Assembly (NCBI GenBank): GCA_016205975.1
Contig: JACQSK010000012.1
Span: forward strand, 15,210 to 79,209
DNA from: Candidatus Uhrbacteria bacterium
GTDB taxonomy: Bacteria > Patescibacteriota > Patescibacteriia > UBA9934 > GWF2-40-263
Reading direction: 5' to 3'
DNA length: 64,000 nt
Below are positions 2,815 through 5,406 of the stretch, piece by piece. Positions within the stretch are counted from its first letter, which is position 1. Each line of letters opens with the position of its first letter. Made by a program: the position numbers and the translations under genes. The notes under the pieces are model-generated. The model was not told the DNA's origin. It ran no database searches and was given only the letters and a program-made list of their open reading frames with translations.

Positions 2815-5406
2815 ATGCAAGACAAGATCGTGATCAAAGGCGCCCGGGAGCACAATCTCAAGAACATCTCGCTTGAGCTGCCGCGCAACAAGCTCATCTG
2901 CTTCACCGGCGTCTCGGGCTCGGGGAAGTCAAGTTTGGCGTTCGATACGATTTTTGCCGAGGGGCAGCGCCGGTATGTCGAATCGCTTTCGGCGTATGCG
3001 CGGCAATTTTTGGGGCAGATGGAAAAACCGGACGTGGACGAGATCGAAGGATTGTCGCCGGCGATCTCCATTGACCAAAAGGCGCATGGGAGCAATCCGC
3101 GCTCCACCGTCGCGACCATCACCGAGATTTACGATTATCTGCGCGTCTTGTTCGCGCGCGTGGGGACGCCGCATTGCGTGACGTGCGGCGAGGCGATTCA
3201 GAAGCTGACGAACGAGGAGATGGTGGACGTGGTGTGGGAGAGGGCGCAAAGGGGGACGAGGGAACGGGCGCAAATGGGGATAGAGGGCGCAAAGGGGGCA
3301 AAGGGGGAAGGGGGATCGTTGAAGATTTTGGCGCCGGTGGTGCGGGGAAGGAAGGGCGAGTACTACCAGATGCTCTATGACCTGTATAACTCTGGCTTCG
3401 CGCGCGTGCGGATCGACGGGAAAGAATTTCGGTTGGATGAGCAAATTAAACTGGCTCGCTACAAACAGCACACCATCGAGATCGTCGTGGACACGATTGC
3501 GGTTGCGTCGTTTGCGACCACCCCCAAGGACGCGCGCCAGCGCTTGGCCGACGCTCTCGAGATTGCCGTGGATCGCGGAGGGGACGTGGCGACGATTATC
3601 TATCCGGACATGAGCGAGCAGCTCCTGTCCAGCAAGTTCAGCTGTCCCAAAGACGGCTTTTCATTTCCCGAGATCGAGCCGCGTTTGTTTTCGTTTAACT
3701 CGCCGTATGGCGCCTGTACTGAATGTACGGGGTTGGGGACGGCGGAGTTGTTCTCCGAGGAGCTGTGCGGGCTGTGCTCGGGAGCGCGATTGAGGAAAGA
3801 GTCGCTGTATGTGTGGCTGCCTGGTGGGGAGACAAAGGAGGACAAAGGGCGCAAAGGGGTATCGATTGTGGATATCACAAGAATGTCGATCGTGCAGGCG
3901 GTTGAGTATTTCAACACGCTGACGCTCACGGAAAAGCAAACGCAGATCGCGAGCTCTGTGCTGAAAGAGATCCAGAATCGTCTGCAGTTCATGCTGGACG
4001 TTGGCCTCCATTACCTGACGCTCAATCGGATGGCGGGAACGCTCTCGGGCGGAGAGGCACAGCGCATCCGGCTTGCCAGTCAGGTCGGTTCCAAATTGGT
4101 GGGCGCCATGTATGTGCTGGACGAGCCGACGATCGGGTTGCATCAGCGCGACAACGATCGATTGATCGAGACCTTGGAAAACTTGCGCGACATCGGCAAT
4201 ACCGTAATCGTCGTCGAGCATGATGAGGACACGATCCTTGCCAGCGACTATATGGTTGAAATCGGTCCGGGTGCGGGCGTGAACGGCGGACACGTGATCG
4301 CCGCGGGGGAGATGTCGAAAATCATCGACGACACAAAGTCCCTCACGGCGGCGTACTTGCGAGGCGACAAAAAAATAGACGTGCCGGCGGAGCGCCGCGC
4401 TCCAGGCAGGGATGCGATCAAGATCAAGGGCGCATCACAGCACAACCTCAAGCATATCGACGTGGAGATTCCTCTGCGGCGGTTCGTGTGCGTCACGGGT
4501 GTCTCAGGTTCGGGTAAGTCCAGCCTGGCCTATGAGACGCTGTATAAGGCGATCTCGAAACGCTTATATGCGACCAAGCATACGCCCGGCGCGCATGAGG
4601 CGCTGTTGGGCGTAGAGTATCTGGACAAGGCGATCCTGATCGATCAAGGCGCCATCGGCCGCACCTCGCGGTCGAACCCGGCGACCTACACCGGCGCGTG
4701 GGATCCCATCCGTGACCTGTTTGCTTCAACGGCCGAGGCGCGTTATCGCGGATACAAAAAAGGTCGGTTCAGTTTCAACCGACCAGGCGGACGATGCGAG
4801 CATTGCGAGGGCCACGGCTTGATCTCGATCGAGATGCATTTTTTGCCGACCGTCTTTGTCACGTGCGACGTGTGCAAGGGGAGGCGGTTCGACCGAGAGA
4901 CGCTCGAGATCGTGTACAAGGAGAAGAATATCTTTCAGGTTTTGGAAATGGAAGTCGAGCAAGCCGCGGAGTTTTTCAAGGACGTCCCGGCCGTGTCCGA
5001 CAGGCTTGAGACGCTCAAGCGCGTCGGTCTGGGCTACGTGAAACTCGGCCAGCCCGCGCCCACGCTCTCCGGCGGCGAGGCGCAGCGCGTAAAGCTCTCG
5101 ACCGAGCTCGCCAAACGACAGACAGGCAAGACGCTGTACTTACTCGATGAGCCCACGACCGGGCTGCACTTTGAGGATGTGAAGAAGCTGCTGGAAGTCC
5201 TGCACGAGCTCGTGAGCAAAGGGAACTCCGTTATCGTTATCGAGCACAATCTAGATGTGATCAAGACGGCTGACTGGATTATTGATTTGGGTCCAGAGGG
5301 CGGGGATCTTGGCGGTCATGTCGTCGTGGTTGGTACGCCTGAGGACGTGGCGCGCCACGCAAAAAGCTATACGGGGCAGTATTTGAAACGTGTGCTGAAG
5401 AAATAA
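2815..5406 (+). CDS. uvrA: Excinuclease ABC subunit A
   Basis: Tandem ABC ATPase modules with two GxSGSGKS Walker A motifs and Zn-finger Cys clusters. The ORF opens at 2809 (ATGATTATG); the second ATG at 2815 aligns with the E. coli MDKIE N-terminus and has AAGGGA 6 nt upstream. Overlaps the uvrB stop. Confidence 0.93.
3238..3318 (+). repeat. Decamer-repeat element, copy 3 (longest, about 7 units), in frame within uvrA (encodes [26 protein letters not shown])
   Basis: Sequence gagagggcgcaaagggggacgagggaacgggcgcaaatggggatagagggcgcaaagggggcaaagggggaagggggatcg. Confidence 0.8.
3826..3860 (+). repeat. Decamer-repeat element, copy 4 (short), in frame within uvrA (encodes [12 protein letters not shown])
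   Basis: Sequence ggggagacaaaggaggacaaagggcgcaaagggg. Confidence 0.7.

Follow-up and report, generated by a model that had tools for sequence, protein, structure and literature searches.

G-rich tandem repeats within uvrA, uvrB, uvrC and ligA of a Candidatus Uhrbacteria genome look like a by-product of repeat copying among hypervariable loops

Why do several repair genes of one bacterium carry, within their coding sequences, copies of the same G-rich tandem repeat? The question is raised by a 64-kb stretch of DNA (64,000 nt; hereafter, the window) from Candidatus Uhrbacteria (Patescibacteria), in which short arrays of one repeat family are scattered over uvrA, uvrB, uvrC and ligA. An initial annotation described the arrays as canonical G-quadruplex motifs with slippage-prone G-tracts and considered them a possible reversible mutator switch. 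Our analysis points elsewhere: the repeats look like a fast-evolving copy-and-paste by-product, not a mutator switch. We favour, with a probability of roughly 0.55, the interpretation that the arrays are genome-specific short tandem repeats that fill hypervariable loops of the encoded proteins and were spread by inter-locus copying and slippage, followed by selection.

The family is built from the units GGGCGCAAA and GGGGGACAAA, which are 9-10 nt long, purine-rich and almost T-free. The units are arranged head-to-tail with a period of 9-10 nt, and because units of 9 and 10 nt are mixed, the reading frame changes within an array. The census of the family, which was confined to the window, yielded eight copies, all on the + strand: two in uvrB, one full and one partial in uvrA, two in uvrC, one in ligA and one intergenic (Table 1). 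The arrays are 36-83 nt long, contain 1-3 T each and do not have fixed ends. GGGCGCAAA occurs 11 times in the window, exclusively on the + strand, compared to 1.1 occurrences expected, and the family is the sole genuine dispersed repeat in the 64 kb. The two uvrB arrays have an exact 33-mer in common, other pairs of intragenic arrays share 12-20 nt exactly, and the intergenic copy, which adjoins the start codon of a - strand CYTH-domain gene upstream of greA and is confirmed by contig L149, shares 8-13 nt with the others.

Among the ~55 genes of the window, uvrA, uvrB, uvrC and ligA, the identities of which were confirmed by Pfam, are the only carriers; together, they make up 12.5% of the window and hold seven of the eight copies. 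The family is absent from the other genes of the window, including those for DnaX, DnaG, RecJ, an HhH-GPD glycosylase, MetRS, LepA, RpoD and GatA. However, uvrB, uvrA and uvrC are direct neighbours, with six copies packed into 6 kb, so that the insertions are not independent events. The uvrA open reading frame (ORF) opens at 2809, and homologues begin at MQDK; the closest UvrA matches are Uhrbacteria proteins with 90-91% identity. Cumulative GC skew climbs across the entire window, suggesting that the + strand is probably the leading strand, and the three top GC-skew bins correspond to uvrB/uvrA, uvrC and ligA.

Table 1. Repeat arrays of the G-rich family and their host genes in the 64-kb window.
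Feature	Coordinates	Strand	Canonical quadruplex motif	Description
uvrB	761-2812	+		683 aa; Pfam UvrB_inter, UvrB, Helicase_C, UVR; hosts two arrays
uvrB-1 array	1236-1292	+	1240-1277	encodes an 18-residue peptide
uvrB-2 array	2075-2119	+	2081-2113	encodes a 15-residue peptide
uvrA	2815-5406	+		863 aa from ATG at 2815; Pfam UvrA_inter, ABC_tran; one full and one partial array
uvrA-1 array	3236-3318	+	3236-3314	27 residues, UvrA 142-168 counted from the start at 2815
uvrA-2 partial copy	3826-3861	+	none (3 G-runs)	GGACAAAGGGCGCAAAGGGG; encodes 12 residues
uvrC	6032-7372	+		446 aa; Pfam GIY-YIG, UVR, UvrC_RNaseH_dom; hosts two arrays
uvrC-1 array	6419-6473	+	6427-6465	encodes KRKGDKGKQRAQRDWGGK
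uvrC-2 array	7067-7102	+	7074-7100	encodes LQRGQRAQRGWE
ligA	41902-43914	+		670 aa; identical to P0121 / MBI4437742.1 ('Candidatus Uhrbacteria bacterium'); hosts one array
ligA array	42380-42427	+	42383-42422	encodes a 15-residue peptide; LigA residues 160-175 of 670
intergenic copy (weaker)	58912-58952	+	58916-58944	GGGCACAAAGGGGTAGAGGGAGCAGGGGG; 13-mer in common with the ligA copy

The evidence that carries our interpretation comes from the comparison with related genomes. Contigs L001 and L002 represent the two closest relatives (~90% UvrA identity), in which 15-22 kb were compared; neither GGGCGCAAA nor a canonical quadruplex motif is found in them. The repeat family is lineage-specific, being found in this genome only among those compared. 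Codon alignments with L001 and L002 place each copy at an indel hot spot. Between the window and L002, all indels of at least three residues are confined to uvrA, uvrB and uvrC; around ligA, indels are spread across several genes.

An independent replicate is provided by GCA_041645135.1, represented by L151 (the uvrB-uvrA-uvrC cluster) and L153 (ligA), which belong to one metagenome-assembled genome, given that their proteins MFA4845153.1 and MFA4845113.1 were deposited in a single submission. In this genome, the loops orthologous to uvrB-1, uvrA-1 and ligA are occupied by a different 9-nt family, GGCTWCRAG. Across the three loops of the two genomes, comparing different loops of a single genome gave local alignment scores of 24-29, whereas comparing orthologous loops gave 9-12; likewise, 5-16 9-mers are in common between loops within a genome and none between genomes. 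As judged from these sequences, a copy resembles its paralogues in the same genome more closely than its orthologue in the other genome. The GGCTWCRAG family does not contain a canonical quadruplex motif, indicating that quadruplex potential is not the conserved property and is probably incidental.

The copies overwrite earlier loop sequence as well as insert into it. At uvrC-2, the window protein is 14-29 aa shorter than its relatives, which hold a longer hairpin-type element there, and the length of the ligA array is within 2 aa of that of the hairpin-type loop in GCA_016235605.1 (L152). At the junctions, there is suggestive microhomology, with GGGCAAGT corresponding to ancestral GGCCAAGT, and GAGAGGGCGCAA to GAGAAGGCAACA. 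Taken across the clade, the sequences suggest that short repeats repeatedly colonise tolerant loops, with each genome making its own variant uniform across loci.

Several further repeats were observed in the relatives. A 104-nt hairpin element is present in frame at two uvrC loops of L151 (13752-13855 and 14472-14575), the two copies being 99% identical, and encodes FPPARLPAGALAKxGGGPPERPFDGRAGIKGGGS; shorter versions reside at uvrC-2 in L001 and L002, and the core hairpin also is found in L151 uvrA. GCA_041645135.1 additionally contains a 35-nt element common to uvrB-2 and uvrA and a hairpin element in RecJ, as well as three tandem 60-nt units (83-100% identical) in frame within a P-type ATPase gene (L151, 5543-5722). 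In L152, a repeat encoding YNLQPTT is located at two places of DnaG (17649-19466), neither of which has it in the window DnaG (51583-53361); these DnaG repeats show in-frame repeat colonisation outside repair genes.

What kind of protein segment do the arrays occupy? The uvrA-1 array inserts 18 aa that are absent from L001 and L002 and is located between EEMVDVV and KILAPVV, a site that across 120 Uhrbacteria UvrA proteins holds from ~6 to 60 residues of lineage-specific low-complexity sequence; the insert falls between two aligned stretches of the solved UvrA 9gxu, near residues 165-166. At the uvrA-2 site, L002 has nothing, L001 carries a hairpin-type repeat and L151 a long hairpin element. 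Compared to the solved UvrB 9gy7_E, uvrB-1 and uvrB-2 add 14 and 11 aa, respectively; the former site is occupied by other sequences of 9-nt period in relatives, and at the latter, the array stands in place of SDGEYP (L001) or SKDDYP (L002). The uvrC-1 array is in the linker after the GIY-YIG domain, and uvrC-2 is only 2 aa longer than the corresponding region of the solved UvrC 3c65. In LigA, the array occupies a loop between PLRL and IEVRGE that is hypervariable among the Uhrbacteria homologues, and it adds 8 aa compared to Escherichia coli LigA (4glx). In AlphaFold2 models, the predicted local distance difference test (pLDDT) score drops below 50 at UvrA residues 155-165 and LigA residues 164-171, with better-predicted flanks in both cases, suggesting that the arrays, as modelled for these two inserts, encode disordered surface loops.

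The reading frame is open in all seven intragenic copies, although the same array DNA is read in different frames between copies (one reading GAKGDKG), which points to a DNA-level origin. With 1-3 T per array, there are almost no stop codons in any sense frame. The sense-frame peptides have grand average of hydropathy (GRAVY) values of -0.8 to -2.7, whereas the antisense frames would yield Pro/Cys/Leu/Phe-rich peptides with GRAVY values of -0.2 to +1.9. As a separate observation on the host proteins, UvrC in this clade is only 432-506 aa long (window, L001, L002 and L151), ends directly after the RNase H-like endonuclease domain and is without the helix-hairpin-helix C-terminal domain, and UvrA, with 835-865 aa, is ~100 aa shorter than the solved UvrA proteins.

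How, then, should the quadruplex motifs be read? The canonical rule was applied as a regular expression (G3+N1-7 x4, merged motifs) to both strands of the 64 kb. It returned nine motifs on the + strand, of which seven derive from the repeat family, and none on the - strand; 300 dinucleotide-preserving shuffles gave 1.13 +/- 1.04 motifs on the + strand, with a maximum of 5. All four genes are encoded on the + strand, which makes the non-template strand and the mRNA G-rich, and the sequence evidence supports the proposal of the initial annotation that the arrays satisfy the quadruplex rule there, far beyond chance. Its expectation that every copy has at least four G-runs holds for seven copies and fails for the partial uvrA-2 copy. 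The uvrA-1 array was expected to contain more than eight G-runs and indeed has 10 of at least 3 nt (lengths 3, 3, 5, 3, 3, 4, 3, 5, 5 and 5), separated by loops of 2-7 nt, within 3236-3314 rather than the original 3238-3318 (GGGAGAGGGCGCAAAGGGGGACGAGGGAACGGGCGCAAATGGGGATAGAGGGCGCAAAGGGGGCAAAGGGGGAAGGGGG). Loops between G-runs are mostly 4-7 nt long across the family.

Folding predictions are uneven among the copies. Quadruplex prediction with G4Hunter, which the initial annotation had proposed, gave means of 1.67-1.97 for six copies and 1.26 for uvrC-1 and the partial uvrA-2, relative to a threshold of ~1.5. When G-quadruplex energies are included in ViennaRNA, the minimum-energy folds contain an RNA quadruplex for uvrA-1 (-46.7 vs -28.6 kcal/mol) and ligA (-40.7 vs -27.0 kcal/mol); that of uvrC-2 is weakly predicted in context, the intergenic copy reaches two tetrads only, and the minimum-energy folds of uvrB-1, uvrB-2, uvrC-1 and uvrA-2 do not include a quadruplex. 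Guo and Bartel (2016) reportedly found RNA quadruplex motifs to be depleted in bacteria. Two motifs of the window are unrelated to the family: one (GGGCGCGCGGGTGGGCATGGGGG) is located inside cysS (13159-13181), and the other (27621-27646) in the left arm of an inverted repeat downstream of the MetRS terminator. This repeat (within 27590-27790) is perfect over 24 nt, with GGGGTCAGGTCGGGAATCGGGAAT at 27625-27650 and ATTCCCGATTCCCGACCTGACCCC at 27759-27782 and ~108 nt between the arms; its left arm contains a perfect 19-nt direct duplication, which gives it the look of a miniature inverted-repeat transposable element (MITE). A partial ATTCCCGATTCCCG also is located at 57567-57581.

Under the interpretation that we favour, short G-rich seeds of 9-nt period would already have been present in some loops. 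Non-reciprocal inter-locus copying, by ectopic gene conversion or template switching seeded by microhomology, together with slippage of whole units, would then have spread one variant and homogenised the copies. Finally, selection would have left only in-frame, stop-free outcomes encoding hydrophilic flexible peptides; such a filter at the peptide level would be sufficient, though unproven, to account for the restriction of the arrays to the sense, G-rich orientation. That the arrays match the quadruplex rule and contain G5-G6 tracts is probably a by-product of unit composition and not the cause of the repeats. The description that suits the feature best is in-frame colonisation by repeats that evolve in concert. 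Coding minisatellites and other tandem repeats under concerted evolution are similar in their fast turnover between species and in the greater likeness of copies within a genome than between genomes; they differ in that the arrays described here are dispersed over four genes, up to 41 kb, with frame shifts inside an array.

Several points weigh against this interpretation. The proposed mechanism is drawn from a pattern seen in two genomes, and copying itself was not observed. The distance between the ligA copy and the uvr cluster is ~35 kb, so that simple local spread is insufficient. All eight copies have the same orientation, which strand-specific effects at the DNA or RNA level could explain equally well. 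Furthermore, in the window, the family resides in exactly four genes of the nucleotide-excision-repair pathway, leaving room for a functional link, which is possible but unsupported; the evidence on the distribution of the family comes from the 64-kb window. A contig scan with CAAAGGGN{0,3}CAAAGGGN{0,3}CAAAGGG was unspecific, with many phyla among the matches listed and, as the sole Uhrbacteria match among these, an intergenic (GGGCAAA)5 tract (L078). A metagenome-contig scan with GGGCRCAAAGGGGGACAAAGGG returned a single, unrelated intergenic locus with a G+C content of ~46-51% that seems to derive from human-gut assemblies, and a synthetic peptide query composed from the insert translations, aimed at repeat-bearing proteins genome-wide, gave collagen-like noise only. 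Rfam and tRNA scans did not identify an RNA gene as a possible source of the motif, and nothing relevant on quadruplexes or in-frame repeats in Patescibacteria was found in the literature.

The alternative that survives best, although we regard it as unlikely, is adaptation at the protein level, whereby flexible, net-positive loops rich in Gly, Lys, Arg and Gln are selected in DNA-binding repair enzymes and the similarity of the DNA merely reflects how they were acquired. Consistent with this possibility, the in-frame peptides are all strongly hydrophilic with a net charge of +1 to +6, the sites flank UvrA-UvrB interaction domains and inter-domain linkers, and Gly at every third residue recurs in these loops in many Uhrbacteria. 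However, the corresponding loops in other lineages are acidic, aromatic or proline-rich (for example, EGYEGYKGFEGFKDKD and FPPARLPAGALAK), close relatives function without any insert, and the reading frame differs among the copies.

Next in standing, and rather improbable, is a small non-autonomous mobile element or, alternatively, trans-templated insertion by an enzyme of the reverse-transcriptase or primase type that uses a genome-specific template and repeatedly targets the same sites. A dispersed family of uniform orientation, with its own variant in each genome, would be compatible with such a process, and the loops of relatives hold hairpins of the repetitive extragenic palindromic (REP) or MITE type, including the 104-nt element at 99% identity in two uvrC sites. 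By contrast, the G-rich arrays were tested for palindromes or terminal inverted repeats, fixed ends and target-site duplications, none of which was found, and their lengths vary between 36 and 83 nt; with only two reverse-complement 7-mer cores in the window and the scarcity of T, the arrays are without a complementary partner. Neither a transposase nor a reverse transcriptase is among the window proteins scanned. The closest known behaviour is that of Rickettsia palindromic elements (RPE) and MITEs that insert in frame: RPEs are dispersed repeats found in frame in unrelated conserved proteins, where they are tolerated as added surface peptides (PMC10969869), and hairpin-type equivalents occupy the very same loops in Uhrbacteria relatives. 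RPEs differ in being ~150 bp long (PMC10969869) and, as the name implies, palindromic, whereas the arrays are shorter, non-palindromic, made of tandem 9-10-nt units and almost T-free, and in many cases replace what the loop contained before.

Still less probable is a functional quadruplex element, in which DNA or RNA quadruplexes jointly tune transcription or translation of uvrA, uvrB, uvrC and ligA, either as a damage- or stress-sensitive cis-regulon or through binding to the Arg/Gly-rich loops that they themselves encode. The canonical motifs exceed chance ~8-fold and are on the sense strand only, six copies score well in G4Hunter, and the minimum-energy folds of uvrA-1, ligA and uvrC-2 include RNA quadruplexes. 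The restriction of seven of the eight copies to four genes of one pathway, with other DNA-metabolism genes devoid of them, also is in line with this idea, as is a coding link described in humans between RNA quadruplexes and the Arg-Gly-Gly (RGG) peptides that bind them (PMC11789052). Indeed, the genetic code leads one to expect Gly/Arg/Lys-rich peptides from RNA quadruplexes (PMC11789052), and the peptides of the arrays are of this kind; the arrays resemble canonical and RGG-encoding quadruplexes in obeying the rule with the G-rich strand as the coding strand. However, their folding is predicted only, and four of the eight copies are without a predicted RNA quadruplex in context. In GCA_041645135.1, the homologous family that fills the uvrB-1, uvrA-1 and ligA loops does not match the quadruplex rule, these genes are free of quadruplex motifs in relatives at ~90% identity, hairpin repeats occupy the same loops in other genomes, and the six clustered copies are not independent. 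The more specific proposal that the arrays form a lineage-specific cis-regulon, coupling expression of excision repair to a common signal (K+, temperature, guanine oxidation or UV damage) or to autoregulation by the encoded Arg/Gly-rich loops, would explain why the repeats are found in only four pathway genes among the ~55 of the window; we consider it slightly more doubtful yet. If regulation by quadruplexes were real, this would be a rare bacterial case of quadruplex-based regulation of a pathway.

The mutator switch, in which +/-1 slippage in the G5-G6 tracts would shift the frame of uvrA, uvrB, uvrC or ligA and thereby turn repair off and on in subpopulations, is scarcely credible. As in phase-variable homopolymeric tracts, poly-G lies within coding sequence, where the arrays contain eleven runs of at least five G, and any +/-1 change would shift the frame. 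However, the longest G-run in the window is 6, as many as 31 of the 42 runs of at least five G are located outside the arrays, and all four reading frames are intact. Known contingency tracts usually comprise at least 7-8 repeats, and loss of ligA is normally lethal. The G5-G6 tracts are present in the repair genes, as the initial annotation had it, but of these only ligA is normally essential, uvrABC being usually dispensable.

A comparison of strains for heterogeneity in G-tract length, suggested at the same time, did not reveal any indel at uvrC-1, uvrC-2, ligA or the intergenic copy at the level of assembly consensus: nine independent Logan contigs from six runs have no gaps over these four arrays, the uvrA and uvrB arrays lying outside the contig coverage. 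Eight of the contigs match the window with 100% identity and the ninth differs from it by one mismatch; uvrC-1 is 100% identical in five contigs, uvrC-2 invariant in five runs and ligA identical in three, and the covered arrays do not vary in copy number within the population. The G6 tracts in uvrC likewise have zero gaps across three assemblies of the sister species (L002), and species differ from one another by the replacement of entire units and not by +/-1 slips. The exact uvrC product is on record in 7 contigs. Exact look-ups retrieved the UvrC, LigA and helicase products, in the case of the DEAD-box helicase only from short contigs lying inside the window, and found no assembly with the window UvrA (two candidate starts) or UvrB. 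Exact repeats of at least 31 nt may break k-mer assemblies, and the 33-mer of the two uvrB arrays may break those built with k=31, which is a possible reason for the absence of the exact UvrA and UvrB products from the Logan assemblies. A candidate uvrC frameshift at the G5 tract 5956-5960 was ruled out because the tract is within a - strand cupredoxin-like gene, upstream of the uvrC start at 6032.

Equally remote is the possibility of a signal resembling DNA uptake sequences (DUS) or Chi that has become enriched in genome-maintenance genes: uptake sequences are individual 9-12-mers found in both orientations, whereas the motif here is confined to eight tandem arrays of one orientation, with a density of about one array per 8 kb. 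Beyond the arrays, only 3 occurrences of CAAAGGG were counted compared to ~7.4 expected, although the motif is over-represented and strand-biased overall (21 on the + strand, 2 on the - strand). The DUS and uptake signal sequences (USS) of Neisseriaceae and Pasteurellaceae, which are biased to genome-maintenance genes according to the literature, resemble the arrays as short over-represented motifs at poorly conserved protein positions, but number ~one per kb, with 1,471 in Haemophilus influenzae (PMC2817400). Pilus/competence-type genes (PilM and pilin) are present in the window, in a cluster with a response regulator at ~37.4-39.4 kb.

The window holds other features outside the repeat-bearing genes. 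An 848-aa protein encoded at 14562-17105 matches TrwB_AAD_bind, T4SS-DNA_transf and TraG-D_C, which are domains of type IV secretion coupling proteins. Just upstream of greA, a 51-aa extremely acidic ORF (MIQTFSALTDDEWGDDDKDVDAEEESDKEEEDEDEANDMDMGDDDDDSNEW; 59071-59226) is called as a gene in a Logan assembly. The palindrome GCGATCGC, identical in sequence to cyanobacterial HIP1, occurs 12 times (for example, at 64, 172, 61763 and 61773) compared to 5.9 +/- 2.3 expected, a count reached by no shuffle.

If our interpretation is correct, the arrays would provide a caution against inferring function from G-quadruplex motifs in bacterial coding sequence. They also would represent a compact example of concerted evolution inside genes of an essential pathway, at loci tens of kilobases apart, and would show that, in a lineage of the candidate phyla radiation, the same tolerant loops of conserved enzymes have been colonised and overwritten repeatedly. 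This process would explain part of the length variation among the UvrA, UvrB, UvrC and LigA homologues of the clade.

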